63,222 bases of DNA, filler included, from Basidiobolus ranarum (GCA_040143965.1; 32 parts of 32 records of this genome joined end to end with filler, not necessarily neighbours in it), one strand, 5' to 3'; positions 11,914 to 57,580 are shown, numbered from the whole stretch's first letter. Notes: generated from the sequence alone by a model not told the origin. Program-made: numbers and translations.

Positions 11914-13773
11914 CTCCTTCCTCTCCGATTTGTATTTTTCTTACTTTCCTTCTACCTTTTTACTTTTGTAATGTCTTGCCCCCTTAGTAAGCTTCTTCCT
12001 TTCTTTTTCTTTTTATTCTTCTTTTCGTCCTCTTGTTCTACCTCCAAATCTTTATTAGGTAAGGGCGTTTATAAAGTAAATAAACACTTTTAGAGTAGTA
12101 GGAGCCGGATTATAACAAGGGTAGAGGTTTTTTTTATAAATATAGGAAGAAGAAGGTATTCGGAGGCGACTAAGTCGATCAACTAGAACCTATACGGTCT
12201 TGAATGAATTGTTAGGGAAGGGCAGGTAAATAATTGATAGTAGGAAAGAAGAAAAAGAAGAAAAAAAGAAAAAAAAAAAAGAAATTTTGAAAGTAGTAGA
12301 AGAAGAAGGGTAGTAGAATTTAGGGGGTATAAACAGTTAGTAGAGTAGGTAGGGTGTTAGGTGGCTTTGGTTGTATGGGTAGGGAGGATATGTTGAGGTT
12401 AGTATATTAATAAAGAAGGTTGAATTGGTAAATGTAAAAAGAAAAAGATAAGAGTAATATGAATACTTTTGGTATAGTTATAAGATGTTGTAAATTATAT
12501 TAGGGAAGATAAAAAGTAGTTAGCTTTTTACTTAGTGGAAACGTAGTTTGAGTGGACGCTGTAGGGTAGGCACGTCTGCTTTATATAAGAAAGGCGCGGC
12601 CGAGGTTGAAAAGGTGGAAGAGGGAAAGGCAGTGAAGGGTGGTACTTACCGAGTGCAGGGTAGGCAAGAACGACCGGGTAGGTAAGGAAGGCGCAATCGA
12701 CCTTTGGAAGCCGAAGTTTTGAAAAGGAAAATTGCGAGTAGGTAGCGCTTATTAAGTGTAGGGTAGGTAAGAACTACAGGGTAGGTACGACGGGCCTGTA
12801 TGAGAAAGGTAAGATCAAAGTTGAAAAGAAAAAAGTAGTAGGCGGGTAGTACCTACCGAGTGCAGGGTAGGCAGGAATGACCGGGTAGGCAAGGAAGGCG
12901 CAACCAACTTGACGAGGAAGGCGTGGTCTTTGTGAACTTGGAGCGAGATTCCTGAGAAGGTGCGACCCAGTTGGGTGGCTGGGTGGCCGTGAGTCGATTT
13001 TTAAAATTTCCCATACTGGGGAATTTCGCGGGAGTTGAAAAGTCGCGGCTCAGACCGTCGGGCCGCACCGTCCCCAGACTCGAGGTCGGAGGGTATACAA
13101 GAAGGAGCGGCGGAGAGCAATGGGAAAGAGCGAGCGGTAAGACTGCTCGGTCGTCCCTGCCTCCGGCTCCCTCTTACAGGTGTGGGCAAGGACGTACAGG
13201 GCCTGCTCCACCTGGAAGCCTTCTGCGGGAGGGCTGCTCTGGCCTGTGGCCTAGGCACCTTCCCGCGGTAACCTGCAAAGGAAACCAAGTTCCAGTTCAT
13301 GGAGCGTTGTTATCGCGTGGCTCCCTACGGTCTGCCGGGGAGTCAACGTTAACAGCGCGAGCCACCTCAGCACCGTTCCAGCAAGGGCTCTGCCTCTGCC
13401 GGGCGGCATCTGAGAAGATCCTGCAGGCGCTAGGGAGTACCCCATAAGCGCCGAGGGGTGGGCTCTGTGGATGACTGGCCGCTGGCCAAACTTATCTACA
13501 AGCCGCCGGGGGTACCGGCCAGCTGGGGAAGCCTTCGGGCAGAACCTTCTGTGCTGGGCCTCCTCTTGGGGCGCATAGGCGGTGTGCGAGAGGCGCTCTG
13601 CGCTCTCCCGTCCTCCTGCCGACCGCGCTCTGGGGAATTCAGGAGGGGAAAGCAGATGCGTGTCTCGAGGCAAGTTCGGCCCTGCCGTACGAGCTTCGGA
13701 CCGCCTACCTTCGTAACTTTGTGAACTCTTCCGCTCGCTTGCGAGCGGTTGGCCTTTCCAGGCGCACGATAGT
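11914..13773 (+). other. rDNA intergenic spacer and 5' external transcribed spacer
   Basis: Immediately precedes the 18S start; has IGS subrepeats, a GC-rich ETS and GATAGT before the 18S 5' end. Confidence 0.9.
12578..12905 (+). repeat. IGS subrepeats (GTGCAGGGTAGGCA core)
   Basis: Copies near 12650, 12756 and 12859, about 100 bp apart. Confidence 0.8.
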
Positions 13774-13796
13774 TACCTGGTTGATTCTGCCAGTAG
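13774..13796 (+). rRNA. 18S rRNA, first 23 nt
   Basis: TACCTGGTTGATTCTGCCAGTAG is the conserved eukaryotic SSU 5' end. Confidence 0.95.
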
Positions 13797-15879: not shown

Positions 15880-16480
15880 GGATCCAATCCGGATCAAATT
15901 GATTTAATTTTTGTTAGGGGCAAGTGTCAGTGCTATTTGAAATTTCAGATATTTAACAATTTTTCCTCTGTTAGTTTGCTGGTAAGGTATGTTGATGTTG
16001 TTGAGTTATGTCTGATCAGTCAAGTATGTGCATATGTAGAGACTAAATACAACAAGATTCTTGTATTTTTGATTCTCATTATGGCTGGAATACAAAGCCT
16101 AAAGTATCTAAATAAAGTCATGCATATTACTTCAAATTCCTCCATCAGTAGACCCAAAAATATGCCCTGCAGAAATTAGATTTTTATGATAATTGCTGGA
16201 AATCAAATAACAAATGCCATTTGTTAGGATCCATCTTTTAACATGTATGAATACCATCAAAATACTGTCAAGAAGTCACCATCATACAATCAAAATCCCT
16301 GGCAGAATGCAAGCCACCAATATTGTGAGGGTTCTCTGACAGTTTTGCAATCCAATAGGGTGGATACCATCTGGATCAAATTTATTTTATTTTGGTTAGA
16401 GGTAAATAAGCAGTAAATCAAAAAGGGATTAAAATTGTGATGGTTTTCTCACAATGACAATCATCAAATATCTGTTAGGG
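15880..16480. mobile_element. Cluster of CMC termini: right end at 15919, second right end at ~16401, inverted left end at 16480
   Basis: Matches to the family's two terminal sequences. Confidence 0.85.
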
Positions 16481-19844: not shown

Positions 19845-20288
19845 CTTAATAATTGGTTCCATCCAATTTTTCAGAAGGGGGAAAAGTTCCATAGATTTGA
19901 GAAGTAGACATTACAGAGAGTGCAAGCTTGGGGCTCATAACCTGTTAAAGTATTTAGGGAGCCTGTTGGAAGTGGTTTGGAGAATTAGAGGAACTGGTGG
20001 TTTTCACTTATTGATTTATTGAGTAGAAAGTTGACATTTGCAGTTTTGTCAAAATATAAGCAAAAAAAACATGTGGAATGTGTTAAGGAAGGTTCCAGGA
20101 ATATGTGTGCAAAGTTTGGGGCTTCTAGCACAATTTTGAAAAATTTATATATCTGAGAACTTCTAAGTGGTAAAAATATTTAAAGTAAATTCCAATTGAG
20201 AATAATGGATAATGTCTTAGTGAATTATAAGATAACTAAGTACTAAGCTTATGACTATATAGGTGTTTAGGCAAAGCTAATTTCAATA
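19845..20288 (-). mobile_element. Copia 5' LTR (family C, 19943-20288), PBS (19931-19942) and gag start
   Basis: GGGCTCATAACC|TGTTAAAG junction; gag start homologous to 39120. Confidence 0.88.
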
Positions 20289-20585
20289 ATAGATATGTTG
20301 CTTTTTGTTTCTGATATTTGTATCATAACTAAAGTTAACTATGATGTTGAATAAAGATTAATTATCCAACAACATTTACATGTTTCATTGTTTACATTTT
20401 GACTAAACTATCAATGTCAGCTTCTAACTAAATAAATCAACAAGTGAAAACCACAAATTTCTCTATTTCTCCAAACTACTTCTATCAGGCTCCCAAGATA
20501 CTTTAACACTTGAAAGCTTCAAATTCATGGTTTCCAATTTTTTGCTGTAGTCTTGGGTAAAGATATATTTTACATCTCTATATAC

Positions 20586-20926
20586 TGCTCAAGTATCTTG
20601 GGAGCCTGTTGGAAGTAATTTGGAAAAATAGGGAAATTTGTGGTTTTCACTTATTGATATATAGAGTAAGAAGTTGACATTTATAGTTTTGTAAAAATAT
20701 AAGCAGAATTATGTGTAAGATATGTTAAGGAAAGTCTCAGAAACACATGTGCAAGGTTTGGGGCTTTTAGCACAAGTTTGAAAAATCTATATATTTGAGA
20801 ACTTTTAAGTTGGTGTCAATACTCCAAGTAAATTACGATTGAGGTGATATCTTAGTTAAATATGGAATAACTAAATACTAAGTTAAATATGACTATATAG
20901 GTGTTTAGACAATGCTAATTTCAACA
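20586..20926 (-). repeat. Solo LTR family C
   Basis: Full-length match; flanks TATAC/TATAA form a near-perfect 5-bp TSD. Confidence 0.82.
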
Positions 20927-21826
20927 TATAAAAGATTAGATGTAACGTAACAAGCAATTGTATTTAAACAGACCTGAATAGTAAGGATCATGAGTAAAAT
21001 AAACTATTACACTTCCAAGTGGCTTCACTATGAGAATGATTACTTGTTAGGGGCTTCAAAGGCAACTTCATGATTAAGCATAACTGCAACAGGTTGGGGA
21101 CTCAGGTTACAGAACTGAATTAGTGATTTCCAATTGAAAAAGTTTCACCGATACAAATACCCTACTAAACGATAAAATATTCCAATGGAGTGAAACCAAC
21201 ATACTACTTATTTGCCACTCTAACGCAACCCATGTTGACTGTATCACACTCATCGTCAATTCGATAATTCTAATGATTTATATTTTGCTTAAGAATTAGT
21301 TAGCATGTCAGCAATCCAGTCTAAAGTTCTATAGTATTTTGGTAGGCTATTGCTATCTCAATGGAATCTCCCGGCATAATGGAATGTAGTTGCATGATAT
21401 ATGGTACTCAACACTAACACATGCAACTTCAACGGCATTAAAGTGGGATAATATGATCAGGTTTAGTCTAACGTTCACCGGAAAGAAAAAATGTCAAGTC
21501 CTTCAGAGTTCACTCCAAGAATTCCCACATCGTTATTTCATATAATGTAGTAACCATGACATCTAGTCATAGGACGGATATTAAATAGTCCGGTCATTTC
21601 ATTGCATATGGAAACTACGTGTTAGTGTCCTCCTGACACGTATTCTCTTTGGCAAATATGGATAATAAAAACCCCATGGGTAGAGAAGTCACTTCGACTA
21701 ATTTGCAATAATTAAAGTATGTGCGCNNNNNNNNNNNNNNNNNNNNNNNNNNNNNNNNNNNNNNNNNNNNTTAATTAATTAANNNNNNNNNNNNNNNNNN
21801 NNNNNNNNNNNNNNNNNNNNNNNNNN

Positions 21827-23447
21827 CTGAATTCTTTATGGAAATTTGCCAACATCCAAGAGCTTATTTTTGTTGTGAACAGTAACAAGAGTCAGCTATT
21901 TGCCAAGTGTCGGTGCTATTCAAAATTTCAGATGTTTAGCAATTTTTCCACTGTTAGTTTGCTGGTAAAGCATATTGATGTTATTGAGTTATGTATGATC
22001 AGTCAAGTATGTGAATATGTAGAGACTAAACATAACAAGACTCCTGTATTTTTTGATTCTCATTATGGCTGGAATACAAAGCCTAAAATATCTAAATAAG
22101 GGCATGCTTATTAATTTGAATTTCTACAGCAGTAAACCCAGTAATTTGCCATTCAAAAATTAGATTTTTGCAAAAATAGCCAGATATTGAATAATGCATG
22201 CCAAATTTGACAATCAATATTTTAACATGTATGAATACCATCAAAATATCATCAAGAAACTGCCATCACACCATCAAAATCCCTGGCAGAATGCAAGCCA
22301 CCAATATTGTGACAGTTCTCTGATGGTTTTGCTATTCAGGAGGATGGATCCAATCTGGATCAAATCAATTTTATTTTTGTTAGAGACTTCATCATTGCTT
22401 GAGTTAGTTTCCAGCATGTAAATGCCTTCTAAAGTGGATAGTGGATCACTAGACTGCTTGTCAATCAAGTCCTCTGTTCTTACTGGTTTTTTCCTTTTGT
22501 GCCAGCAGGCTTTTGCTTGGAAGCCAATTTGGATTCAGATTTCAAATGCTTTTTGAATGCCATTGAGATTATCAGATGATAAACTTGGTGTAATGAAAAT
22601 GCTTTGAAACAGCTTATAATAGACCAAAATTGCCATCCACTACTGGAAATAGCTTATAAATACCCTGATGACTCATCTGTGACACTGTCTTATATTCATC
22701 TGATGATATTGATGGGATATACCTGAAATATCACCCTTATGTAAGATTCAATAATTGGATATGAAAAACTTGATTACAGGTTTGAAGAAGATACACTGAA
22801 TCTATGCCAGTACTCTATACATTCCCTGCTACTTGTTTACAATGCTTAGAGATTATAGGCCCTTGCTATACACTCTGGGATTTTCCAATGGAGCACACCT
22901 ATGGTGAAATGATGCTCCATGTGAAATAGTCAGTATTACCATATGTTAATCTGATTAACAATGTATCAGCTAAATCAGTGATAGATGTAGTGCAATAGGT
23001 TCAGGAGACTCCAGAGTATATTAACCTTCCAACAACAGGCTCTTTTCACTCTGCTCATGGGTTTTCACACTGTTTGAGCACAATAACAGCAACAAAACCC
23101 AATCCATGGACTCCAAATAAGTATCTCTATGACTTGGACTAATTTGTTTATGTGGCAATTTGATTGTCCTTCTAGGAGAGCTGCAAGACAGACTTCTTTG
23201 TGAGATGGATCAAGATACATATTATTATTGTTTTAGCCATGGGGTAATCTATTAAAGAATGACACAACTACTTGTGGTAGGACATTTGTTGACTGCAAGT
23301 TGGGGATATATTAGCTGAATACTTTATGGACATTTGTCAAAATCCAAGAGCTCATTTTCATTGTGAGTGATAACAAGAGTCAGCTATTTACCAAGTGTCA
23401 GTGCTATTCAAAATTTCAGATGTTTAGCAATTTTTCCACCATTATCT
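21827..23447 (+). mobile_element. CMC right end (to 22385) nested in a second, internally deleted CMC copy
   Basis: Terminus TTTTGTTAGAG is followed by ORF-A/intergenic sequence and then the transposase C-terminal half. Confidence 0.85.
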
Positions 23448-23707
23448 TGTTGAAATTAGCATTGCCTAAACACCTAGATAGTCATATATAGCTTAGTATT
23501 TAGTTATCTGATAACTCACTACGATATTATCAATTATTCTCACTTGGAATTTACTTAGAATATTTTACCAACTTAGAAGTTCTCAGATATATAGATATAT
23601 TAAACTTGTGCTAGAAGCCCCAAACTTTGCACACATGTTCCTGGGACCTTCCTTAACATATTCTACATGTTAGTTTGTTTACATCTTGACAAAACTATAA
23701 ATGTCAA
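23448..23707 (+). repeat. LTR family C inserted in the CMC transposase
   Basis: TGTTGAAATTAGCATTGCC start. Confidence 0.85.
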
Positions 23708-23807: not shown

Positions 23808-25687
23808 GGAATGTATTGAACACCAGCATAGATTCAGTCTATCTTCTTTAAACCTGTAATAAAGTTTTTCATATCTAATTGCAAAATCTTTGCTCAGTCA
23901 CTGTATCTGGCTGAGATCTGCCAGTGTGAGTTGATGCCAGAAGAATATGTTAACAATATACACAAATAACTCCCAATGTTGCCAATACTTTTCAGGCAGA
24001 AATCTGTTCAATATTCCACTTGAATATATACAAAGCCAATACCTCCAGTTTTGTATTTGAATAAATGGCCATCTGAGTGGATATGATGAGAGTTCTGTTA
24101 AAATATGATGGTAACTTGATGTTTTCAAGCATCTTTCCAATCAATTTGAACTGTGATTTTATCTCAAATGGCTTATTCATATTGAATTTTCCACTATAAA
24201 GCTGAGTAAGTAGTATTGGAATGTTATTGAATAGTAAGTGCATAGTGCCTAATGGGAAGCTCTGGCTCCAGCTGATCCCCTTTAGCTCTATAATCTTAGT
24301 CTTATAGCTAATACCAAGTTTGATGTTAGATTGACTATTTGGTGAATAAATATCAGTGATAATGTTGAAATCTGACCAGGCTCTTGACAGTAAAATCATG
24401 GAGCTTGCTTTTGTATTGGGATAGTAGTAATGAGTATGCCTGATAGAGTAGACTCCATTGATTTGACAAAATCTTCAGCAAGATACTGCATTGTGCCCAC
24501 AAAACCATCCAATTTTGCTTATGGCAGTAGTGTCACAAATGCATACAATGATATTAGCCCTAATAAAACATACACCCATCTGAACCCCATTAGATAATTA
24601 TACAAATTCCACAATCAAAGGCTCCAAGAAGCTATTTGTAAGCACTGATGACTTAGGTCCAGATATGATGGGTAGTGTCAAAATATTATGTCTCTTATAC
24701 CATTCAGAAGGAGGAAGATTTAAGTTAATTAAAATTATTGGCCAGCAAGCCTTTCCAACAGTGTATTTATTTAGCAAGAAACCATCCAGAGGCAATGTAA
24801 ATGCATGATCATATGTGCTCTCAAAGAAATCTAGACTTTTCAGATTCCAGTGGTAATACACCAAGTATATTGGCAATACCATCAGCTTTATGGTGAGTAC
24901 TTTGGTATTGGATCAATAATCTATGTTAGGGTGAATTCATCAAAACTTTAAGATTGGGAATCATCAGAATTTAAGCCAAATATCAACAATTCTTACTTGA
25001 CTCAGATATTGCCAATTGTATGCAAACAGTCCATGGCCTCAGGTTTATCAGAACATTGGTGAAAGGCAAACAACCATTTGGACATGAAGGTAGTTTAATT
25101 ACTGAAGAATTATAAGTCTTTCAATTGACAAGTGTTTTGCACTTGTACCAGGTCTGTGCAATCAGTGGACTCAGTGGGCACAACTAAAGTCAACTTTCTG
25201 CACTTATTACTGCTGATATTTACCAGGCTTTGTGCCACTGGTGGCTTTTTACAGTGACCATGCTTGTGATTATTTTTTCTATGAAGCCTCTGGCTTTCAT
25301 AGCACAAGCATTTGTGACAATAATATCAGGGCTTCTTTAAATGTTTATGTTGTGGCATGAGAAGGATATTGTGGAAAACAGAACACCTTCTATGTGAGAG
25401 TGGTATTTTAGATATAGCCAATCAATATCATCAGCTGATTCTGAGACGGTGTCACAGATGAGTCATCAGAGGATTTACAAGATATTTCTTGTAATGGATG
25501 GTAATTTTGGTTTATTATAAGCTGTTTCTAAGCAATTCTATTACACCAAGTTTACCATCTGAAAACTTCAATGCCATTCAAAAAGCATTCAAAATCTAAG
25601 TCAAAATTGGCTTCCAAGCCAAAGCCTGCTGGCACAAAAGGAAAAAAACAAGCAAGAACAGAAGACTTTATTGATGAGCAGTCTAGC
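23808..25687 (-). mobile_element. CMC transposon interior: transposase pseudogene (ATG 25358, minus) and ORF-A start (ATG 25571, plus)
   Basis: LDGF..KACWPIILINLNLPPSE..SGPKS..FLEPL Transposase_21-type motifs. Confidence 0.9.
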
Positions 25688-25810: not shown

Positions 25811-26802
25811 TTATTGCAACATATTGGCCAGATAGCTGGAAGAATATTGATTCAGCAACATTAATACAATGGTGGGCTTTGATAGAGATATTGACACATA
25901 GTGATGTTGGATCAGAGCTAAACCTTGGGTATGAAAAACTCTATAAAATATTCAGCAGAGTGTATCCAAGAAACTAGGGATTTTGAAGGTGACATATTAG
26001 CATTCAAGTGATACTTGTCTAAAACTTGAGTTATTTCTTTTGCACATGTGTGTATCCATAGTTTTCTGGTATTGTAGCCAATCATGTCCAACTATTTTGC
26101 AAGATCCTGTATTTTTACTACTGAAACTGAAAAAAATTTTAAAATCACATCTAACTTGACATCTTTATGACAGAAAGTCAATAGTCAACACATTCATGAA
26201 ACATCTTGAAAAATACCTGATTATCTACTTGGAAAAGAAAAAAAGAGGCTGAAGCAGTACCCAAGGGGCAGGTTATAAAAAAATTTATAGGAAAAGGAAA
26301 GAAATAGTGAGCCCTTAAGATACCAACCCACTTGCTCACTTCTCAACATTGCAACTAAGAGAAAACTTTGGAGTTTAGTGCAATTCCCAACTGTGCACTG
26401 AAAAGCATGACTTTGCAAGACAATAAAGCACACCAGTGCAAATATTTCATGGATCAAATATCTTTGGAACATATGTGACATTTAGCTGACTTATATTAAC
26501 AGTAACTAAGCTCTATTCAAACCACTACTGGGACTTTTCACAGTGTTGATGTTAGGAGTATTTATAAAAGCATGCAAAAATCTGGTGAAAATTCATCAAT
26601 CAGAGTTAGTAGTGCCAAACCAGAACATCATACAAAATACAAAAGAGTACTTGGAAAATACTTCAAAAAGCTTAAAAGCAAAAACAGAGTGGAGTCTGGC
26701 ATCAAGTTGCTTCTCCAAAATAAAATTGAACTACACATCAATTCCAATGTTGACCATGCAAACATCCAGGAAGAACTTAACAAAAGGTGGCACCAGGTTG
26801 TA
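25811..26802 (+). pseudogene. ORF-A C-terminus plus a second, more divergent ORF-A homologue
   Basis: VLGKYFKKLKSKNRV...IQEELNKRWH aligns with VLEKYFQTYEGKNAV...IWEELNTEWH. Confidence 0.65.
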
Positions 26803-27667
26803 CCCTAACAAAAATAAAATTGATTTGGTGGGGAATGGATCCACCCTTCTAAATTGCAAAACCATCAGAGAACCATCACAATATTGGTAGCTGGCATTCT
26901 GCCAGGGATTTTGAGGGTGTGATGGTGGTTTCTTGATGGTATTTTGATGGTATTCATACATATTAAAATATTGATTCTCAGATTTGGCATGCATTATTAA
27001 TTTCTGGCAATTTTTGCAAATTATAATTTTCAAATGGCAATTTACTAGGTTTACTGCCGTAGGAATTTGATTTAATATGCATGCCTTTTTTTAGATATTT
27101 TAGACTTTGTATTCCAGCCATAATGAGATTCAAAAAGTACAAGAATCTTGTTGTTTTTGGTCTCTGCATATGCATATACCTGACTGATCAGACATAACTC
27201 AACAACTTCAATATGCTTAACAAGCAAACTAATGGTGGAAAAATTGCTAAACATCTGAAATTTGAATAGCACTGACACTTGGCAAATAGCTGACTCTTGT
27301 TACCATTCACAATGAGAATAAGCTCTTGGATTTTGGCAAATTTCCGTAAAGAATTCAGCCAATATATCCCCAACTTGCAGTCAACAAATGTCCTGCCACA
27401 AGTAGATATGTCATTGCTTGAATAGATTACCCCATGGCTAAAACAATAATACTGTGTATCTCCATCTATCTCACCAAGAAGTCTGTCTTGCAGCTTTCCT
27501 AAAAATACTGTCAGATTATCATGCAAGCAAATTAGTCCAATTATAAAGGTACTTACTCTGTGTCCATGGATTGGGCTTTGTTGCTGTTATTGTGCTCAAA
27601 CAATGCAAAAACCCGTGAGCACATTGAAAAGAGCCCTTTGTTGGCAGGTTAATATACTCTGGAGTCT
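26803..27667 (-). mobile_element. CMC right end and transposase C-terminus
   Basis: CCCTAACAAAAATAAAAT at 26803. Confidence 0.9.
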
Positions 27668-27767: not shown

Positions 27768-29170
27768 AAATGTGAAAGCTGTATTCAAGGGAAAATCTCC
27801 AGAAAACCATTTCCAAAAGAAGGAGCTAGCAAAGCCAAAGATTTATTGGATCTTATTCATACAGACTTATGTGGCCCAATGCAAACTCTGACACCAAGTA
27901 AGCAACGATATTTACTCATCTTTATTGATGATAAATCTCACTTCACAGTTTCATATCTTCTGTCAAGCAAAGGAGAAGTGTTTCAATATTTCAAGATATA
28001 CGAAGCAATGATCACAACCATAACAGGAAGAAAAATCAAATAACTACGCAGTAATAATGGAACTGAATTAGTCATGACGCCACTTGGGAACCTGCCAGAG
28101 GAGTATGGGAACCTCATAATTGCCCTAGAACCAAGATCAGAGCCATTAATGAAGGAATATGTTGGTAATAGACTTTTAAATGAGGAATTCTGGAGATCTA
28201 TTTCTCAGCCTTTTTTTGGAGCTGTAAAACATTCAACAAGCTGTAATAATGGTGCCCCTAATAGGAAATCAATTATCTGCAAATATTGCAAGAAACAAGG
28301 CCATTCAATCAAAGATTGCAAAATAAGGATACTTGCCAAAAAGCTAAAATTGGAACAGGCAAATCAAGGAAGCACCAGCAGGAAACATCTATTTCTGTCT
28401 GCCCTAGCAGTAACCTCCAAGGAAGACTCAGAAATGTGGTACATTGATTCAGGAGCTTCCCAGCATTTGTTAAACCAGAAAGATTGTTTTCCAGCCTAAA
28501 ACCTATCCAAACAAGGAAAGTCTACTTAGATGCTGACTATGCACCAGAAGCAGTTGGTGAGGGCATCATTGTGCACAATTCAAATCAAAATTTAGTCACA
28601 CCATCTGCAAAATTGAATGATGTACTCAATGTACCAAATACAGCAAAGAATCTACTCTCAGTAAGTAAAGTAACAACTCAAGGACTAAACTTCATATTCA
28701 GAAAGAATGGATGCACTATTGTAGATCAGAATAATACCAAAGTAGCCACTAAGATCAAAGCCAAACACCTATACAAGCTAGAAAGCAACAAATTGCATTC
28801 TGCGCTTGCAAACTTGGCCAAAACTGGTGGAATGAGCTGTCAAACATGGCATAAAAGGTTAGGCCGCATTGGGGAACAAAAACTGACCCAAATGATCTAT
28901 AATTGGCAGGTTTTACACTTGAAAATTGATATTTTTACTAAATTTGATCTGTGTGAGGGTTGCATATATGGAAAGCATCACAGACAGCAATTTGCAAGAT
29001 CTGGAAAGCATAAGTCTAATAAAAATTTTGCCTTGATTTGTTTTGACCTATGTGGCCCCATGAGAATGGTCTCACTAGGTGGCAAAAGGTACTTTATGCC
29101 TCTATTGATGACAAAACAGGCTATACTTAGACATTACTTCTCAAATCAAATTCTTTAGCCTTAGCTGTGT
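27768..29170 (+). mobile_element. Two fused copia fragments: integrase, then gag-protease-integrase
   Basis: DLIHTDLCGPM; CKYCKKQGHSIKDC; WYIDSGASQH; WHKRLG; CEGCIYGK. Confidence 0.92.
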
Positions 29171-29239
29171 TGAAATTAATTAGGGAGAAATATTGGTCCG
29201 GCCAGAATTTGGAGCTGGTACCTCCTCCAGTCCTTGTAT

Positions 29240-29646
29240 CCCTAACAAAAATAAAATCGATTTGATCCGGATCGGATTCACCCTCCGAAATAGCAAAACC
29301 GTCAGAGAACCATCACAATATCGTTGGTTTGCATTCTGCCAGGGATTCTGATGGTGTGATGGCGATTTCTTGACGGTATCTTGGCGGTATTCCTACATGT
29401 TAAAATATTGATCCTCAAATTTGGCATGTGTTATTCAATATCCAGCAATTTTTGCAAAAATATAATTTTCAAATGGCAAATTACTGGGTTTACTGCTGTA
29501 GGAATTTGAATTAATATGCATGCCTTTATTGAGACATTTTAGGCTTTGTATTCCAGCCATAATGAGAATCAAAAAATACAAGAATCTCGTTGTGTTTAGT
29601 CTCTACATATGAACATATTTGACTGATTAGACATAACTCAACAACA
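29240..29646 (-). mobile_element. CMC right end, young CpG-retaining copy
   Basis: CCCTAACAAAAATAAAATCGATTTGATCCGGATCGG. Confidence 0.92.
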
Positions 29647-33703: not shown

Positions 33704-34017
33704 GTCTCTACATATGCATATATTTGACTGATTAGACATAACTCAACAACATCAATATGCTTTACCAGCAAACTAATGGTGGAAGAATTGCTAAACATCT
33801 GAAATTTTGAATAGCACCAACACTTGGCACAGTGCTGACTCTTATACCATTCATAATGAGAATAGGCAATTACATTTTGGCAAGTTTCCATAAAGATTTC
33901 AGCCAAAATATCCACAGCTTGCAATCAACAAGTGTTATGCCACAAGTAGGTGTGTCATTACTTGAGTTGATTACCTCATGGCTAAAGCAATAATACTGTG
34001 TATCTTGATCTATCTCC
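33704..34017 (-). mobile_element. CMC transposase C-terminal fragment
   Basis: KHIDVVELCLISQ homology. Confidence 0.85.
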
Positions 34018-34063
34018 TAACCCTATTTTACCATCCATGTCTACCATCCTAGTACCATTAAGA

Positions 34064-34439
34064 TGTTGAAGTTTTTTATCTCTAACACATTTGTTCTCTC
34101 TATCTTTATACACCTAAATACTTCTTATATCACACATAAGCTAATTAAGATTACTTTGTCACATATCACTTAACTGTAAATTGGAATATATAGTAAATAT
34201 ATATGTGACTAATGTGAGCATTAGCAATTCCATATTGAAATATCAAAATTGTCCAAATTGCCCCAAAAATAGCTTATTTTACTCCCACAGATGTTGTGAG
34301 CACAACCTCAATGTTGATTTTTGGTATTACTACCAAAATGTATAAATGCTTCTCTGCAGGACAATAAATAATTATCTCACAACAATATTGACAACTCCAC
34401 TTTCTAAAGTTCCTCCAAACAACTCATATTTTTCCAATA
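34064..34439 (+). repeat. Solo LTR family A with a perfect 5-bp TSD (TAAGA)
   Basis: TAAGA|TGTTGAAG...TTCCAATA|TAAGA; homologous to 6930-7306. Confidence 0.88.
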
Positions 34440-34469
34440 TAAGAAGCTACTATCATACCATTTACTAAA

Positions 34470-35395
34470 CATCTGGCAGAATGCAAGCAACTAATATTAG
34501 GATGGTCCCATGACTATTTTGTGCTCTAGGAAGGTGGCTTTAATCCAGATCAAGATGATATTAATTCAGTCAGGGTGTGCTAAAGGGTTTTTACACTCCT
34601 TGAGCACAATTACAGCCCCTAAACCCGGTCCATGGTGAGGGATTAAGTTCATGTAGAATTTGAACTCTTGTGTTCTTGTGATAATCTGTTGATATTTCTA
34701 GGAAAGCTGCAAGGTAAATGTCTAGTGAGATATATCAAGATACAAATATTATGCTTTTAGCCTGGGGATAATCTATTCAAGCAATAACACTTCTCCCTGT
34801 GTCAGACATTTGTTGGTTTCAGCTTGGGCATAGTTTGATTGAATTTTTCTTCAAAATTTGCAAAATCCAACAGCTTATTCTGATCCTTAATGGTTACAGG
34901 AGTTAGCTTTTGCAAAGCATCAGTGCTATTCTTAACTTCAGCTGTTTAGCAATTTTCTCACCATTATTTTGCTGGCAAAGCATACTGGTGTTGTTGAGTT
35001 ATGAATGATTAATCAAGGATGTGCAAATGGAAAGACTAAGCACAACAAGATTGTAGAGTTTTTTTATTTTCATTATGGCTGGTATTCAAAGCCTAAAGTA
35101 TCTAAGCAATGGAATACATACTAATTCAAATACCTAAGCCAGTAAACCCACTAATATGCCACTTGAAAACTTATATGTTCTAAAAAGTGTTAGAAATTCA
35201 ATAATCCATGCCAAATATTGATGTTGATTAATTTAGCATATATATATATTGTCAGAAGACTGTTAGTAGCTGCCATCATATCATCAAAAGCACTGGCCAA
35301 ATATAACACATCAATCTCAAGACAGTCCTCTGATAGTTTTGCTGTCAAGCAGGGTGGATCCAACTCAGATCAAATGAATGCTATCTTTTTTAACA
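34470..35395 (+). mobile_element. Older or divergent relatives of the CMC element (right-end regions)
   Basis: Collinear with 8100-8921 but clearly more diverged. Confidence 0.7.
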
Positions 35396-35681
35396 CTACT
35401 TAATTTTCTATGTTTGCTCTGCAAGTTTCTACAGATCTGGAGTAATATGTCATTTCAACTGCTACTCAAGAATAAGAATTAGTAATGCCATATCGGAAAT
35501 TTCAAACTCATCCAAATTGCCCCAAAGATAGCTCATTTTACTCCCACAGATGTTCTGAGCATAACCCCAGTGTTAGTTTTCNNNNNNNNNNNNNNNNNNN
35601 NNNNNNNNNNNNNNNNNNNNNNNNNTTAATTAATTAANNNNNNNNNNNNNNNNNNNNNNNNNNNNNNNNNNNNNNNNNNNN

Positions 35682-37559
35682 TATCCTCACAGCTGGCTGG
35701 ACTTACTGGTTTGACCAAATTTGCATTTCTATCTACTTCATTCTGGTCATATAACTTTGGTAACTCCACAGTATGTTGACTTTTGGCAGTGTTACTAAAA
35801 CTTTGAGGCAGAGCACAGCCAGTGGACTCAGTGGGCAAGGCTAAAGTTAATTTCATGCACTTGTTAGAGTTGACATTGACCTAGCTTTGTGCAGCTGGTG
35901 GCTTTGTACAGTGACCATGCTTGGATTATTTTTTCTATCAAGTCTCTGACTTTCATAGCACAACAATTTGTGTCAATGATAGCAGGGCTTCTTTAAATGT
36001 TTTGGTTGTGGCATGAGAAGGATATTGTAGAAAAAGGAACACCTCCTACGTAAGGGTAGTATTTTAAGTATAGGTCATCAATAGGATCAGCTAACTCTGA
36101 GATGGTGTCACAGATGAGTCATCAGGGGATTTGGAAGATATTTCTGTTAGTTGAGGGCAAGTCTGGTTTATTTTAAGCTGTTTCCAAGCAATTTCACTAC
36201 ATCAAGTTTACCATCTGAAAACTTTGGTGCCATTAAAAAGCATTGAGAATCAAGGTCAAAAATGGCTTTGAAGCCAAAGCCCGCTTGCACAAAAGGAAAA
36301 AAACCAGCAACAACAGAGGACTTAATTGAAGAGCAATCTAGCAATCTACTTTCCCTTTGGAAGGCATTGACATGCTTGAAACCAACTCAAGTAATGATGA
36401 ACCATTGATCAATTTGCAGATGTTTTCTGTTCTATCAATAGTGCAAGTGAAGAGATTGTAATCCCCCAATTATGTAGTCAAGCAGTAGTTGAACAAACAC
36501 CAACCAAAACACCATCAAGACTGTCAACTTCCAAAATGGCTACTTTGCCCACTATTGAACAACCCTATGTAGAAATTGGATAGAATTATAACAACAAGGG
36601 AATCACAGGCAGAACACCATAATGGTTTGTATGCAATCATAAGTAAAAGCTATAAAGTTGCTATACAGGCCATGACAAGCAATAAAGCCACAATGTAGCA
36701 ATTAATGTAGTGTTTGGAACCAACTAGTCAGCAGTTAGAGAGTCACTAAACAGTGATACAAGACCTTGAGACTGCTGTACTTGGGCTACAGCAAAATGCT
36801 GCACCCTCCATGCATTCTCATATGGGATTTCAATCAATTGCACACCATAAATATGAAAGTCACCATGACAATTACCTAACAAAAATAAAATTGATTTGAT
36901 CTGGACTGGATCCACCCATCTGGATCACAAAACTGTCAGAGAACCATTGCAATATTGATGGCTTGCACTCTACCAGGGATTTTGATGGTGTGATGGCGGT
37001 TTCTGGATGGTATTTTGATGGTGTTCCTACATGTTAAATATTGATCCTCATATTTGGCCTGCATTATTCATTTCTGGCAATTTTTGCTAAAATATATTCT
37101 TTGAATGGCAAATTACTGGGTTTACTACTGTAGGAATCCAAATTGATATGCATGCCTTCATTTAGATATTTTTGGCTTTGTATTCAAGCCATAGTAATAA
37201 TCAAAAATTAAAAGAATCTTGTTGTGTTTAGTCTAAACATATGCACATACTTGACTGATCAGACATAACTTTACAACATCAGTATGCTTTACCAGCAAAC
37301 TAATGGAGGAAAAATGCTAAACATCTGTAATTTTGAATAGCACTGGCACTTTGCAAATAGCTGACTCTTGTTACCATTCTCAATGAGAACAGCTCTGGGA
37401 TTTTTGCCAATTTCTGTCAAGAACTCAGGCAATATATTCCTGACTTGCAGTCAACAAATGTCCTGCCACAAGTAGATATGTCATTGCTTGAATAGATTAC
37501 CACATGACCAAAACAATAATACTGCATATCTTGATCTATTTCACCAAGAAGTCTGTCTT
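35682..37559 (-). mobile_element. CMC interior (transposase ATG 36014 minus; ORF-A plus ~36227-36873) with a CMC right end inserted at 36874
   Basis: Homology to contigs at 23808 and 61574; ACCTAACAAAAATAAAA terminus. Confidence 0.88.
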
Positions 37560-37659: not shown

Positions 37660-39446
37660 TAAATTTTGCATATATCCACACAAATCTGAATGAATTAGAT
37701 CCAATTTTTTGACAGATTTGATTAAACCAGAGCTCTTGAACAGCTCCCTGGCTTGTTCTCCATATATAGAACCCTCACAAACTTCCATTTTGGTTGGTGG
37801 GATTAATTTGAATTTTTGAAATTAGGTGATTTTTGATCATTTTGCTCAAATAATCAGATCCAATATGGCTGAATCTCTTATTCTATAATTGAGTAGTTTC
37901 TTGATTGGAATAACTTTTATTTATACATAAGCCCCTTGGACTATATGTAAATTTATATAAGTTGTGATTCTTTTCTCCCAAAGCTATATACTTCCCATTT
38001 TAATCAGTGATGGTGCATCTGGACTTATGAAAATTGAATTTATCCCTTCAGAGGTGGCCTTGCATACATATATTAGGTTCTTGGCAATATCTGGAGCAAG
38101 CAGTACATCCTGAAAAGTATTCACTTTCTCTTCAGAAGCTCCAGTTAAATTGACTTGAATTGTTCTCATTCCAATGGCATCCAATGTATGGTCATCTCCC
38201 ATGAAAACCTTTCTAGTTTGGATTTCTTTGTAATCCACAAATCAATGTTTTCATTTGTGAAATGTTGAGAGGCTCCAGAATCAATATATCATGTCTGAGA
38301 ATACCTGTTGATAGTCATAGATAGAGCAGATATGAACAAGTGATCTTCTGTTGTAACCACATTTCCAGATTCAGTATGTTTTTCTTCTTTTGCAATTCTT
38401 TTAAAGCAATCTTTGCTTATATGGCCAGTTCTTTTACAGTAATCACAGAATGTGTTACTTTCTTTCTTAAAGCTCTTTTGACCTTTATAGGAAGGTTTCC
38501 CATAGCCTATTGAAGTATTTTCTTCATTCTTTGGGTTAGATCCTGGCTTCTGCAAATCTTGATCTAGAAGTCTGCCAAATACATAATTTAAGGTCAAATT
38601 TTCAGGTCTTGATTCTAGACCAGTACTAGGCTCTAAATCTCATGTGACAGGCTATCCAGGACTGTAACCATGATATCTAGATCAGAAGTAGATACTCTAA
38701 TGCATTTCATTTCATCCACTAAAATAGTGACTCTATTAATTAGGGATTTATTGACTTCTCCTGGCTTCATATTAAAGTTAAAGCATTGTCTTCTTGGAAA
38801 CATCTTGTTGGCAGCAGAACATGTTTGGTAGGTATCTTCCAAGGCTTTCCATACCTTATTGGCAGTTTTAGCTCTTGAACATTGAATCAGCAACTTGTCT
38901 TTAACTTTTAGACAAATTGTGTTAAAGGCACTTTGTTCTTTTTTAACCTGGAGTAAAACTTTGGTTTCACATAGTTTTGCATTTTCTTCTTCTCCTACAA
39001 CAATGTCCCAAAGTTCTTTTTCTTGCAGCAGCATTTTCATTTTAATTTTACAAACTCAATGATTGGTTCCATCCAATTTTGCAGAAGAGGGAAAATTCTA
39101 TAAATTTGAGAAGTAGACATTACAGAAAGGGCAAACTTGGTGCTCATAGCCTATTGCAGTATTTGGGAGCATGTTGGAAGTGGTTTGGAGAATCAGAGAA
39201 ATAGGTGGCTTTCACTTGTTGATTTATTGAGTAGAAAGTTAACATTTATAGTTTTGTCAAGATGTAAAGAAACTAACATGTAGAATGTGTTAAGGACAGT
39301 CCGAGGAATATGTGTGCAAGGTTAGGGGCTTCCAGCACAAGTTTGAAAAAATCTATATATCTGAGAACTTCTAAGCTGGTGTCAATATTGTAAGTAAATT
39401 CTAACTGAGAATAATGAGTGATATCTTGGTTCAATATAGGATAACT
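37660..39446 (-). mobile_element. Copia element 5' half: LTR-C (39152-39446), PBS (39140-39151), gag (ATG 39120), protease, integrase start
   Basis: MKMLLQEKELWDIVVG, CDYCKRTGHISKDC, YIDSGASQH. Confidence 0.93.
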
Positions 39447-39636
39447 TGTTGGAGGATCTTGACATAATGGGGTAGACTTTGAGTATTAGAAGCAACTTAT
39501 GATAGTGTGTTTTAGTTAGTTTATTCTTAAGAGTATNNNNNNNNNNNNNNNNNNNNNNNNNNNNNNNNNNNNNNNNNNNNTTAATTAATTAANNNNNNNN
39601 NNNNNNNNNNNNNNNNNNNNNNNNNNNNNNNNNNNN

Positions 39637-39911
39637 ATTGATCCTTGTAGTCCCCAACATGCCAACTCTCAAACTTGCCACAGTATATTCCCTATTCAGT
39701 ATATTATGTTTCACCCTGCAATATCTATATAAGCCCCATATATTCCTTAATTGGACCTCCGTCTGATCAATGCCAGTTATCAATAAAGATTCTTGCCAAA
39801 GTATCTTCCTTGTCCAGTCTTGTCTTGTCTTGTGGTCTATACCCAAGTACTCTCCTGCCTTCTAGCTTCTTGTTGTTGTTTCCAGTCCTTGTCCAGTTCC
39901 TTATTGTGACA
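39637..39911. repeat. LTR family D (probably Ty3/gypsy)
   Basis: Ends TTATTGTGACA; other copies at 41614-41870, 43013-43108, 51489-51886, 53462-53681 and 61351-61573; opposite end ATCATGACA. Confidence 0.7.
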
Positions 39912-40650: not shown

Positions 40651-41513
40651 CCCTAACAGAAATTTGAGGATTGTTATTGTAGGAAAACCGTCATAATTTT
40701 AATCCATTTGGGATTGACCGTTTACTTAAAATCATAAAATTGTCAAGTTAGATTTGAGTTTAATCAATTTTTTCAGTTTCAGGGGTGAAATTTCAAGATC
40801 TTGCAAATAGTTCAGCATGATTGGCTACACTCTGAAATTTCAAGATCTTGCAAAATAGTTGCAAATGATTGGCTAAAATCTCAGAGAACTATGATTCAAC
40901 ACATGTGCAAAAAACGTAACTCAAATTTTAAACAATTACCACTTGAACACTAATTTGTCACCTTTGAAATCCCTAGTCTCTTTGATATATTCTCCTGAAT
41001 ATTTTTATAGAGTTCTTCATACCCAAGGTTTAGCTCATACTCAACATGAGTTTCTGTCAATATCTCCATTAAAGCCCACCATTGTATTAACGTTGCTGAA
41101 TCAACATTCTTCCAGCTATATGGCAGATACCCTGCAATATTGTGCCACTCTGTATTAAGTTCTTCCCAGATATCAGCACAGTCAACGCCAGACTGAATGT
41201 CAAGTTGAATGTTCATCTTCTGAAGCTACTTTCTGCATACTTGCACTGCATTTTTCCCTTCATATGTTTGAAAATACTTCTCAAGCACTTTAACTATTTT
41301 TGTACGTCCTTGTAGTGTGACACTACTGAGGGTGCTTTGCAGTGTTTGTGCGGCTTTTTGCTTGCCTTTACCTCTGGGACTAATTTCAACACTTTGAAAA
41401 GTACCAGTTGAGGTTAGAGAGCCATGAGTTTTATTTGCTGGTGTTTTGGCTTGTTGAGAGGTGCCAGGTGTTGGATAGACTTCCAAATTTAGCACTCTTC
41501 CAACTGGTGTACC
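40651..41513 (+). mobile_element. CMC left end with the ORF-A C-terminal half on the minus strand (40950-41513)
   Basis: CCCTAACAGAAATTTGAGG; ORFs 41226-41495 and 40950-41216 are one frame split by a stop. Confidence 0.9.
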
Positions 41514-44913: not shown

Positions 44914-45465
<552 letters not shown>

Positions 45466-49514: not shown

Positions 49515-51388
49515 GGAGAGTTCAATCTAATCTTAGCAACCAGGTGTTTATTGGTTTTCTTACACTATTACCACAGTTGATTGGCAACTGTTGCTTGCCC
49601 CAGACCTGATACAAGTGGAAAACACTTGTCAATTGTATTATTTATAATCCTTTGGTAGTTAAACTGCCTTCATGTCCAAATGGTTATTTGGCTTTCACTG
49701 GTGATCTGAAAAACCTGAAGTCATGTACTGTTAACACACAATTGGCAATCACTGAATCAGGTAAATTGCAATCATATTTGGCTTACATACCATTGATTCC
49801 CCATCTTAAAGTTTTGATGATATCACCCAAATATAAATCATTGATCCAATACCAAAGTACTCACTGTAAAGCTGCTGGTTTTACCAATATACTTGATGGA
49901 TATCACTACCTGAATCTGAAATGTCAAGGTTTCTTAGAGAACACATATGATCATGCATTTGCATTGGCTCTGGATGGTTTCTCACTAAACAAATATACCA
50001 TTGGAAAGGCTTGCTGGACAATAGTTTTAATCAACTTAAATCTTCCACCTTTTGAATGATATAAGAGTCATAATATTTTGATACTATCCATCATATCTCA
50101 ACCTAAATCACCAGTGCTTGTAGATAGCTTCTTGGAGCCTTTGATTGCAGAATTTAAACGGTTATCTAATGAGGTTCAGATGGGTGAATATTTTATTAAA
50201 GCTAATATAATTTTATGTATTGGTGACACTCCTGCCATCAGTAAACTTGGAGGATTTTGCAGGCACAATGCACTATCTTGCTGCAGATTTTGTCAAATTA
50301 ATGGAGTTTATTCTATCAGTCATATGAATTACTATTATCCAAATAGAACACTAAACTCTAAGATTTTACCATCAAGAGCCTGGTCAGATTTCAACGCAAT
50401 CACTGATATCAATTCACCAAATAGTCAGTCTGACATCAAACTTGGAATTAGCTATAAGCCTAAGATTATGTTGCTAAAGGGCATTGGCTGGAGCCAGAGC
50501 TTCCCATCAGGCACTATGCACTTACTATTCAAGAACATTCTGATACTACTTACTCAGCTATGTAGTGGAAAATTCAATATGAGTGAGACATTCAAGATAG
50601 TATCAAAGTTTGAATTGAAAGGGAAAATGCTTGAAAACAACAAGATAACATCATATTTTACCAGGACTCCCATCAATATCCACTCATCTATGCATTTATT
50701 CAAATACAAGGACTGGAAATCTTGGATTTGTATATATTCAAGTAAAATTTTGAAAAGATTTCTGCCTGATAAGTATTGGCAACTTTGGGAGTTGTGTGTG
50801 GATATTGTTAATATATTCTGGCAATATTCTGGGAGTTCCCAATGGAGCACACCTGTGGTGAAATGATGCTCCATGTGATATTGTCAGCATTACCATATGC
50901 TAATCTGATTAACAATGCATCAGCTAAATCAGTGATGGATGTAATGCAATGGGTTAAGGAGACTCCAGCGTATATTAACCTGCCAACAAAGGGATCTTTT
51001 CAATGTGCTCACAGGTTTTTGCATTGTTTGAGCACAATAACTACAACAAAGCCCAATCCATGGACACAGAGTAAGTACCTGTATAATTGGACCAATTTGC
51101 TTATGTGGTAATCTGACGTTACTTTTAGGAAAGCCGCAAGACAAACTTCTTGGTGAGATAAATCAAGATACTTAGTATTATTGTATGAGCCATGGGGTAA
51201 TCTATTCTAGCAATGACACATATACTTGTGGCAGGACATTTGTTGACTGCAAGTTGGGGATATATTGGCGGAATTCTTTATGGAAATTTGCTAAAATCCA
51301 AGAGCTTATTCTCATTGTGAACAGTAACAAGAGTCAGCTATTTGCCAAGTGTCAGTGCTGTTCAAAATTTCAGATGTTTAGCAATTTT
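49515..51388 (+). mobile_element. CMC/EnSpm Transposase_21 (Tnp2-type) pseudogene, best-preserved copy
   Basis: ALDGF, NLNLPP, DSFLEPLIAEF, IGDTPAISKLGGFCRHNALSCCRFC, MHLLF, WEFPME. Confidence 0.93.
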
Positions 51389-51888
51389 NNNNNNNNNNNN
51401 NNNNNNNNNNNNNNNNNNNNNNNNNNNNNNNNTTAATTAATTAANNNNNNNNNNNNNNNNNNNNNNNNNNNNNNNNNNNNNNNNNNNNTAACTGGTGTTG
51501 ATCAGATTGAGGTCTGATCAAGGAATACATGGGGCTTATATATATATTGCAAGGTGAAACATAATATACTGAATAGGGAATATAATGTGGCAAGTTCAAG
51601 AATTAGGGTATTAGGGACTACAAGGACCAATACAAAGAGGGATGATGTAAGGATGATGAGGTGACCTTCCATGGAAGGTCTTGGCGGAAATATACTATGT
51701 GCTGGATGACATGATTGGTTAGGTTTCATGGAATGTTTCAAAGCACATGACTTCCATATAAGGTAATCTGGATGAACTAACACCAGTTTGCCAAGAAGGG
51801 ATGGCACAGCAGATATGATGTCATAATCTATTAATAGAAGAGTTCTATTTGCAGTGGATCAGTATGCCAAGATCAGAATCATCACAGG

Positions 51889-52205
51889 TGTTGGATGATT
51901 AATCTTTATTCAACTCAATAGTTAACTGTAGTTATGATACATATATCAGAAACAGAAAGCCATGTGTCTATAGCCCCTATATTCTAAATAAAAATATCTC
52001 TATATCTCTATAACAAGTATGTCTTATTACCCCCACTTATATATTATAACTTATTACACAAACTCCAGAATATCTCAAACTATTGATTTACTTTTCTACT
52101 CTATAAGTCACTATATACTCTTAAGAAAAAAGTAACTAAAATACATCGTCATAAGTTGCTTCTAATACCCAAAGTCTATCCCCATTATGTCAAGATCCTC
52201 CTAGA
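51889..52205 (+). repeat. LTR family B
   Basis: Full-length reverse match to 9977-10292. Confidence 0.85.
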
Positions 52206-53205
52206 AAATCAGCTGTCAAATATGGCATCAAAGATTAGGCAACATTGGGGAATAACAACTGACCCAAATGCTCAAAAATCAGCTTGTTTCAGGCTTAGAA
52301 ATGTAAATTCACAAAATTGGATCTGTGTGAAGATTGAATATATGGAAAACTTTGCAGAAAGCTATTATCAAGTTCTGGAGTGATCAAATCCACTGAGATT
52401 TTTGACCTGATTTATTTTGACCTATGTGAGCCCATGAGAAGTGTCTCACTAGGTGGGAAAAGGTACTTAATGATCCTTACTGATGAAAAAACAAGATACT
52501 CTTGGGTATTCTTTCTCATAGCAGAACATGAAGCCTTAGCGGCATTGAAGCACTACCAAGCAATGGTTGAGAAAGAATCGGCACAAGAAATAAGGGTACT
52601 ACAGTGTGAAAATGGTGGAGAAAACTGCACTGAGGACTTTTCTAGTTTTTGCTTCAAATATGGAATGAAGCCACAAACTGCTGTACCTTATACTTCACAG
52701 CAAAATGGAGTTGCAGAATGTGCTAATAGGACCATAGTAGAGATGGTGCAATCAAGGTTACATTGTCAAAAATTAGATTACCAATATTGTGCTGAATCTG
52801 TCTCCTCTGTAGTCAATATCAAAAACAGAAGCTCAACAAGATTGCTACAAAATTCTACCCCATCTGAAACACTATAAGGATCAAAACCAAATGTGGATCA
52901 TCTTAGGATATTTGGTTACACATATATTTCCTATTTCCCACACAAACATGTTCTAAATTGGAACCCAAGAGTACAAAATGCACATTTTGTGGTTACTGTG
53001 ATGGATCTAAGGCCTACAGACTGCTTGATACCACAAATCAAAAGTTAATTAAGTGCAGAGATGCAATTTGTGATGGAAAAGCAAGTTTTTTACCATAAAT
53101 CAAATTTCTTGATCCAGAATACACAATCAGCACAATTCAGGAAATGTCTGCAAAATTTCCAGCAGTGTTTGAGCCCTATTCAACCAAAATTCCATTCTCA
53201 ATTGC
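52206..53205 (+). mobile_element. Copia integrase remnant
   Basis: DLIYFDLCEPM, ENGGE, PYTSQQNGVAECANRTIVEM. Confidence 0.92.
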
Positions 53206-53361
53206 CCCTAACAGAAATTTGAGGATTGTTATTGTAGGAAAACCGTCACAATTTTAATCCATTTGGGATTGACCGTTTACTTACCGTCATAAAATCGTCA
53301 AGTTAGATTTGATTTTAATCAATTTTTTCAGTTTCAGGAGTGAAATTTCAAGATCTCGCAA
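53206..53361 (+). mobile_element. CMC left end, young CpG-retaining copy
   Basis: CCCTAACAGAAATTTGAGGATTGTTATTGTAGGAAAACCGTCAC. Confidence 0.92.
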
Positions 53362-53681
53362 NNNNNNNNNNNNNNNNNNNNNNNNNNNNNNNNNNNNNNN
53401 NNNNNTTAATTAATTAANNNNNNNNNNNNNNNNNNNNNNNNNNNNNNNNNNNNNNNNNNNNCTATTCAGTATATTATGTTTCACCTTGCAATATCTATAT
53501 AAGCCCCATGTATTCCTTAATCAGACCTCAGTCTGATCAATGCCAGTTATCAATAAAGATTCTTGCCAAAGTATCTTCCCTGTCCTGTCTTGTCTTGTCT
53601 TGTGGTCTACACCCAAGTACTCTCCTGCCTTCTAGCCTCTTGTTGTTGTTTCCAGTCCTTGTCCAGTTCCTTATTGAGACA

Positions 53682-57406: not shown

Positions 57407-57580
57407 TACTGTCCCACAAGAAGACTGTTGATCCAGCAACATTAATACAATGGTGGGCATTGATGGAGATATTGATACAAACTCATGTTGGGTATGAGCT
57501 AAACCTTGGGTAAGAAGAACTCAATAAAAATACTCAAGAGAATACATCAAAGAGACCAAGGATTTTGAAGGTGACAAATT
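57407..57580 (+). pseudogene. CMC ORF-A C-terminus
   Basis: ATLIQWWALMEIL...GFEGDK region homologous to 40950-41110. Confidence 0.8.

Follow-up and report, generated by a model that had tools for sequence, protein, structure and literature searches.

Two start codons stand back to back at positions 25358-25573: CAT at 25356-25358, which on the minus strand is the ATG of a transposase, and ATG at 25571-25573, which opens a second reading frame (ORF-A) on the plus strand; 212 bp lie between them. The window, i.e. the whole stretch of DNA that was analysed, comprises 63,222 bases and is an artificial chain of 32 unlinked contigs of 1872-1887 bp (c1 to c32), ordered by descending length and separated by linkers of the form N44-TTAATTAATTAA-N44 (e.g. 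1888-1987 and 3874-3973). Sites in separate pieces are therefore without physical linkage, and the layout of a whole element proposed below is a composite. The stretch with the two start codons falls within c13 (23808-25687).

The same arrangement is found in c32, with CAT at 61809-61811 and ATG at 62024-62026, again 212 bp apart, so that both the codons and the spacing given by the initial annotation for these two pieces are confirmed. It had also pointed to a similar arrangement at 36014, in c19: here the transposase CAT at 36012-36014 (a minus-strand ATG) and the ORF-A start site at 36227-36229 are once more separated by 212 bp, but the ORF-A start is GTG. The region of the ORF-A start is present in five pieces (c12, c13, c19, c21, c32), three of which hold both starts. 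In c12, the ORF-A ATG is intact at 22561-22563 (minus strand), and the spacer runs on until 39 bp before the transposase ATG, where an internal deletion sets in; in c21, both starts have been lost through a deletion equivalent to positions 426-716 of c32. The three copies with both starts are 81-87% identical; the junctions in c13, c32 and c19 are thus independent copies of one junction, as they differ from each other in 13-19% of their sequence.

All four copies of the spacer retain a TGACTCA site, which was set aside as a conserved site, since its retention is no evidence at an overall identity of ~80%; a CCAAT box in the c13 spacer is not kept in the other copies. The gene model of P0001, a database relative of the transposase (see below), begins 56 codons downstream of the transposase ATG used here; if this were the true start, the spacer would measure ~390 bp. 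Exact-pattern scans of metagenomes for the conserved spacer block and for the right terminus yielded 0 matches each.

The Tnp2 family to which the transposase belongs occupies 20,281 of the 60,122 non-linker bases and is present in 18 of the 32 pieces; in none of the 32 was a whole element found. Scans of the whole window for tRNAs (ARAGORN) and Rfam families gave 0 matches. Three host gene fragments are recognisable by eye, all on the minus strand: an alkaline-phosphatase-like one in c29 (55436-56356), the C-terminus of a glutamine-fructose-6-phosphate aminotransferase in c23 (44917-45465), and a metallophosphoesterase-like one in c31 (59954-60667). One piece, c7 (11914-13796), has 50% G+C and a CpG observed/expected ratio of 0.88, all other pieces having 32-42% G+C; it contains long open frames on both strands, has no repeat matches, and may be foreign or contaminant DNA.

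Table 1. Positions of the spacer, reading frames and ends of the Tnp2 family in the window.
Feature	Piece	Position	Strand	Basis
212-bp spacer	c13	25359..25570		divergent start codons
212-bp spacer	c32	61812..62023		divergent start codons
212-bp spacer	c19	36015..36226		divergent start codons
Transposase, ATG to ~residue 586 of P0001	c13	23808..25358	-	decayed
Transposase N-terminal third (P0001 residues 1-342, 3 stops)	c32	62024..63222	+	P0001 comparison
Transposase start	c19	35684..36014	-	alignment of copies
Transposase core; best ORF 50060-50863; DG, GD, CRFC motifs	c26	49515..51388	+	80% identity to P0001
Transposase C-terminus (...FFDSHYGWNTKPKISK, then stop)	c12	21827..22096	+	reading frame
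ORF-A, first 39 codons (MPFKKHSKSK...), cut by contig end	c13	25571..25687	+	ORF
ORF-A N-part, cut at 61573 by unrelated ~220-bp repeat	c32	61574..61811	-	ORF
ORF-A N-part, GTG start; longest stretch of arm	c19	36227..36873	+	ORF
Left-arm ORF, C-terminal 187 codons, one TAG stop; conserved helical domain (predicted)	c21	40953..41513	-	ORF and relatives
Left-arm ORF, upstream continuation; overlaps c21 at 86% identity	c4	7297..7845	-	overlap with c21
Left-arm ORF, diverged paralogue, 100 open codons, cut by right terminus 26803	c14	26506..26805	+	40% identical to c21
Right subterminal region and right terminus (...TTTTTGTTAGAG)	c12	22097..22385	+	shared end
Left terminus CCCTAACAGAAATT with its subterminal region, which has the ACCGTCATAAT motif and a direct repeat of 47 bp	c21	40651..40952	+	shared end
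Right subterminal region and terminus	c5	8633..8921	+	exact 28-mer
Left-end fragment, 78 bp, abutted by right terminus at 16401	c9	16403..16480	-	shared end

The transposase and the frames on the other side of the spacer

The initial annotation had named the element a CMC/EnSpm transposon, and both the Pfam score and the relatives of the transposase bear out a Tnp2/Transposase_21 identity. The ORF in c26 itself reaches 27.5 bits against Pfam Transposase_21, just below the cut-off of 28.6; its sole close relative in a database search, P0001 (intact, 80% identical, 698 aa, on a contig of 5,233 bp), reaches 60.3 bits. The nearest named proteins are annotated "Transposase family Tnp2" in Rhizoctonia and Ceratobasidium, at 26-31% identity (E 1e-62 to 1e-35), and the next relatives include one protein of a red alga. 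The nearest Atlas clusters of P0001 carry PF02992; arthropods and basidiomycetes are the sources of these Transposase_21 clusters, the best of them being from arthropods. Against the PDB, P0001 had 0 sequence matches at E values up to 10. By eye, without alignment to reference families, DG and the series IGD...CRFC...HSLLH...WE(F/L)PM(E/D) are seen in P0001 and in c26/c22; these motifs (DG, GD, CRFC, HSLLH followed by E) conform to C(2)C / H(3-4)H, the pattern that PMC12730594 describes for the CMCT clade.

The rightward ORF starts with MPQHKHLKKPCYYCHK.LCYESQRLHRKNNHKHGHC... (majority of three copies). Taken by majority over the aligned copies, this frame stays open from its ATG across a part rich in Cys and His and on into the stretch that resembles P0001; as read from the sequence, the whole transposase would be ~900 aa long. 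All transposase copies in the window have stops, frame changes or deletions relative to P0001. The copy in c13 has eight stops in the stretches aligned by tblastn, reads TGA in frame at codon 11, and shifts frame in places.

On the other side of the spacer, ORF-A opens with MPFKKHSKSK.KLASKPKPAGTKGKK..., and c19 and c21 in combination allow it to be traced over ~150 codons; the c19 copy ends at 36874, against the right terminus of a different copy. The repeat of ~220 bp that breaks ORF-A in c32 (61351-61573) also breaks the N-terminal part of the transposase in c21 (39692-39911) and recurs in c28 (53462-53681); the three are 90-95% identical with a sharp common boundary, and look like a small separate mobile element.

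Near the left end of the family lies a further frame, the left-arm ORF, whose C-terminus (...LIQWWALMEIL....ELNLGYEELYKNIQENISKRLGISKVTN) is found in c21, c5, c16, c14 and c30, and which measures at least ~330 codons when extended by c4. A search of 1.84 billion protein representatives returned nine matches, eight of them credible (four fragments of ~75% identity and four small proteins of 31-44% identity), all short (99-151 aa); longer relatives, of 329-2000 aa, were not found. A saposin match was taken as chance. Alignment of the relatives brings out a conserved motif, DIWEELN..WH..GYPPD.W...WW, and the paralogue in c14 is 40% identical to the c21 copy without gaps (E 2e-20), with almost no similarity of the DNA by blastn. 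The library relatives, the shared motif and the c14 paralogue together show the left-arm ORF to be a genuine gene of this element family that encodes a conserved protein. None of the parts of ORF-A, the left-arm ORF included, matches a Pfam family or has similarity to Transposase_24/TnpA; the domain is predicted to be all-helical, at low confidence (mean pLDDT 56.5). HEPN-type Atlas clusters, considered as kin of this domain (score 0.91, 127 shared features), fall below the level of kinship.

A repeat of ~380 bp (82-89% identity; 6930-7306 in c4, 34064-34439 and 35475-35581 in c18) adjoins the middle part of ORF-A in c4 and, in c18, is embedded in a transposase copy that has diverged. The piece c18 (33704-35581) represents a second, older subfamily, with a transposase and right end 72-74% identical in DNA to the others; c14 (26190-26802), with its 40% identical (protein) ORF-A paralogue, belongs to the same subfamily.

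Ends, insertions and condition of the copies

The copies of the family end on the consensus 5'-CCCTAACA[G/A]AAAT...GTTAGGG-3'. Right ends (...ATTTTATTTTTGTTAGGG) number 12 and occur in c5, c9 (two), c12, c14, c15, c16, c17, c18, c19, c22 and c25, one being a 40-bp stub and one belonging to a copy of only 72% identity; left termini (CCCTAACAGAAATT...) number five, in c21 (40651), c27 (53206), c16 (30144), c5 (near 9454, degenerate) and c9 (16480). Right and left ends alike stand in unrelated flanks. The exact 28-mer of the right end has nine matches where 0.00 are expected, and the terminal 14-mer has 14 where 1.06 are expected; the left and right tips form a terminal inverted repeat, matching at 13 of 14 positions. 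The motif ACCRTCAYAAW (nine matches, 0.35 expected) occurs exclusively in subterminal position, within ~90 bp of the termini, at both kinds of end, and the left arm additionally contains a 47-bp direct repeat.

The initial annotation had described a left and a right TIR with genes facing outward; the inverted-repeat match of the tips and the outward reading are both supported. Its distances between gene and terminus hold as well: the transposase, said to end ~290 bp inside the right terminus, has its stop at 22096, 289 bp inside 22385, and on the left side, where ~300 bp had been given from the terminus at 40651, the left-arm ORF ends at 40953, which is 302 bp inside. Of its count of about 11 right and five left ends, the left ends stand, and the right ends come to 12.

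No piece holds both ends of one copy, from which the TSD could be read; paired ends inside one piece always face apart or the same way, and no empty insertion site was found in the window. Of the 17 termini, about seven are nested self-insertions, in that they border directly on other copies of the family (15919, 16401, 22385, 26803, 32698, 36874 and 40651), and in c9 a right terminus stands one base from the 78-bp left-end fragment; such self-insertions may be due simply to the density of the copies or to a preferred target. Two further termini (29240 and 53206) lie inside copia-type fragments, at different copia positions. These fragments, identified by matches to gag_pre-integrs, Pol_BBD and rve, are found in c15 (27768-29646), c27 (51489-53361), c28 (53462-55334), c30 (57407-59278) and c20 (37660-39536).

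Internal-deletion derivatives (c12, c17, c21) and many insertions into copies of the family itself are present; this combination of internal deletions and nesting is typical of DNA transposons. In 15 pieces made mostly of the Tnp2 family, the CpG observed/expected ratio is 0.00-0.18, as against 0.55-0.88 in nine pieces without these repeat families (c1-c3, c7, c8, c10, c24, c29, c31). Such a loss of CpG is what cytosine methylation and deamination directed at repeats leave behind, and it fits old, methylated, dead copies. Transposon-filled pieces with low CpG are c4, c5, c9, c12-c14, c16-c22, c25-c28, c30 and c32. A further repeat family, of ~350 bp and 78-91% identity, is present in at least seven pieces: c11 (19845-21726), where it is partly tandem or inverted, c6, c12 (23448-23707), c16, c20, c23 and c25.

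A proposed composite element and its alternatives

Assembled from these parts, a whole element would measure at least ~5 kb. It would start with the left end CCCTAACAGAAAT and ~300 bp of subterminal DNA, followed by ORF-A as an accessory gene reading toward the left end, the 212-bp spacer, the transposase of ~900 aa reading toward the right end, ~290 bp of subterminal DNA, and the right end ...ATTTTTGTTAGGG. The transposase would cut at the terminal inverted repeats of 13-14 bp, ORF-A might assist as a TnpA-like helper at the common subterminal motif ACC(A/G)TCACAAT, and the spacer, common to both genes, would drive both.

The steps of this proposal differ in strength. The 212 bp are probably the spacer between divergent starts in decayed copies of a Tnp2/Transposase_21 (CMC/EnSpm) cut-and-paste transposon, a reading that includes the composite element. 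Provided ORF-A is a gene, the spacer is predicted to be a two-way promoter, a prediction that we hold to be evenly balanced. From their orientation, equal depth and similar divergence we infer, with a slight preference, that the left-arm ORF and the frame starting at the spacer belong to one gene; the full composite layout is likewise somewhat favoured. The helper role of ORF-A is a tentative suggestion and goes no further than analogy, because ORF-A has no Pfam family and a poor model (pLDDT 56.5).

The joint between the two parts of ORF-A is where the composite is most open to another reading. The N-part as preserved in c19 (to 36873; c19 1007-1193) and the left-arm continuation in c4 (from 7845; c4 1338-1886) have no overlap by blastn or tblastx, right ends outnumber left ones by 12 to five, which speaks against one composite element, and the relatives of the left-arm ORF are all of 99-151 aa, with none at 329-2000 aa. 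The composite may accordingly be a chimera, in which the spacer-side ORF is short or a different gene from the one near the CCCTAACAG end, or in which the left arm comes from a partner family (e.g. a non-autonomous one) that shares the terminal repeat. We regard this as rather unlikely: the orientations suit a single outward-reading gene, the promoter and N-part are found at the same depth as the left arm (five pieces each), the divergence of the left-arm copies (81-95% identity) resembles that of the other parts, and the ends are joined both by tips that match at 13 of 14 positions and by a subterminal motif common to left and right.

The coding nature of the N-part can be questioned as well. 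In every copy, stops or frame changes occur within 40-110 codons, the start in c19 is GTG, and pN/pS among copies of this CpG-decayed family is 0.53-0.72 in coding frames and 0.44-1.48 in non-coding controls, i.e. no better than in the controls, the two classes not being separated. The ORF-A start might then be a chance leftward opening in the 5' flank of the transposase rather than a gene start, and the 212 bp a one-way promoter or leader. This is improbable, however, as the ATG is retained in three of the four copies that hold the position (c12, c13, c32), the frame can be traced over the ~150 codons that c19 and c21 provide together, and broken frames are equally common in the transposase gene, which is beyond doubt. 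Lastly, all pieces are ~1.9-kb leftovers of a fragmentary, repeat-rich assembly, and the head-to-head junction might have arisen in assembly, from repeats collapsed into very short contigs. This is highly improbable, since the junction recurs with its 212-bp spacing in three contigs differing by 13-19%, and a fourth (c12) has most of it.

Relation to known elements

The proposed element of two divergent genes resembles maize En/Spm and the plant CACTA elements, with which it has in common Transposase_21 (tnp2), short TIRs, subterminal motifs, a second protein and internal-deletion derivatives. The termini of CMC/EnSpm elements are usually CACTA...TAGTG or CA..TG, with a TSD of 2-3 bp. Here, at least 10 copies end 5'-CCCTAACA...TGTTAGGG-3' instead, the CCCTA of these ends being one base from CACTA. 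Three hallmarks of the superfamily are found: the Transposase_21 domain through P0001, the motif pattern of the transposase by eye, and repeated subterminal motifs in the form of ACCRTCAYAAW. The second protein sets the element apart, as no TnpA-type protein (Transposase_24) is seen on the transposase strand and the second ORF, without Transposase_24/TnpA similarity, starts on the opposite one; in En/Spm, according to the passages on it in PMC1636069, TnpA and TnpD arise from one transcription unit by alternative splicing. By analogy, the element is taken to work like the En/Spm type, in which a DDE transposase is accompanied by a second protein and acts on short TIRs with subterminal motifs.

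The animal TRC elements offer a parallel for the termini. In the parts of PMC1636069 that describe them (SmTRC1 of Schistosoma and relatives in Tribolium and Aedes; DeMarco 2006), their TIRs begin with CCC, in Tribolium with CCCTAG..., and their TSDs are of 2 bp. The Tnp2 transposase, the CCC core at the start of the TIR and, for the composite, a length of ~5 kb are shared with the family described here, and the best Atlas cluster of P0001 is from arthropods. The gene layout differs: TRC elements, as presented in the same parts, make several proteins from one unit by alternative splicing, whereas the starts here are divergent. The host here is apparently a fungus, to judge by the basidiomycete origin of the nearest named Tnp2 proteins.

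Among fungal elements, the Tnp2 proteins of Rhizoctonia and Ceratobasidium are the nearest named relatives, at the identities given above. As far as the passages on their termini go (Kojima 2025, PMC12730594), PlavakaA ends in TGT..ACA and PlavakaB in CATCA..TGATG, with TSDs of 2-3 bp, and fungal EnSpm elements end in CAC..GTG; the termini here, in contrast, are CCCTAAC..GTTAGGG, and no TET/JBP gene is seen in the window. Huge expansions of CMC-EnSpm in Basidiobolus are reported in the section of Muszewska 2017 (PMC5751038) on Zoopagomycota; the elements were counted there by Pfam domain, in passages that give neither ends nor gene layout nor a second gene. If the host is Basidiobolus-like, the family in the window belongs to this expansion.

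Within the published texts that were searched, neither a head-to-head Tnp2 layout nor CCCTAAC termini in fungi were found described. It is conceivable, though doubtful, that the family is an undescribed Tnp2/CMC lineage of an early-diverging fungus, in which a compact control region of 212 bp, in place of the single spliced transcription unit of En/Spm, would drive divergent expression of the transposase and of an accessory protein measuring at least ~490 aa, the latter protein bringing a new conserved helical domain (DIWEELN..WH..GYPPD.W..WW) as a TnpA-like, end-binding helper. As a structure, it is a modest variation on a known kind of transposon, CCC/CCCTA termini and the expansions in Basidiobolus being already in print.

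The understanding of cut-and-paste transposition is unchanged by these observations, and their practical value lies in annotation and comparison, since the copies are dead and depleted of CpG. If the composite layout holds, a divergent two-gene architecture with an unrelated accessory protein would be added to the CMC/EnSpm superfamily. The family, which occupies about a third of these repeat contigs, would also receive a name and boundaries, an aid to repeat annotation in a poorly assembled genome of an early-diverging fungus, and the conserved domain of ORF-A is a candidate for a new transposon helper domain.
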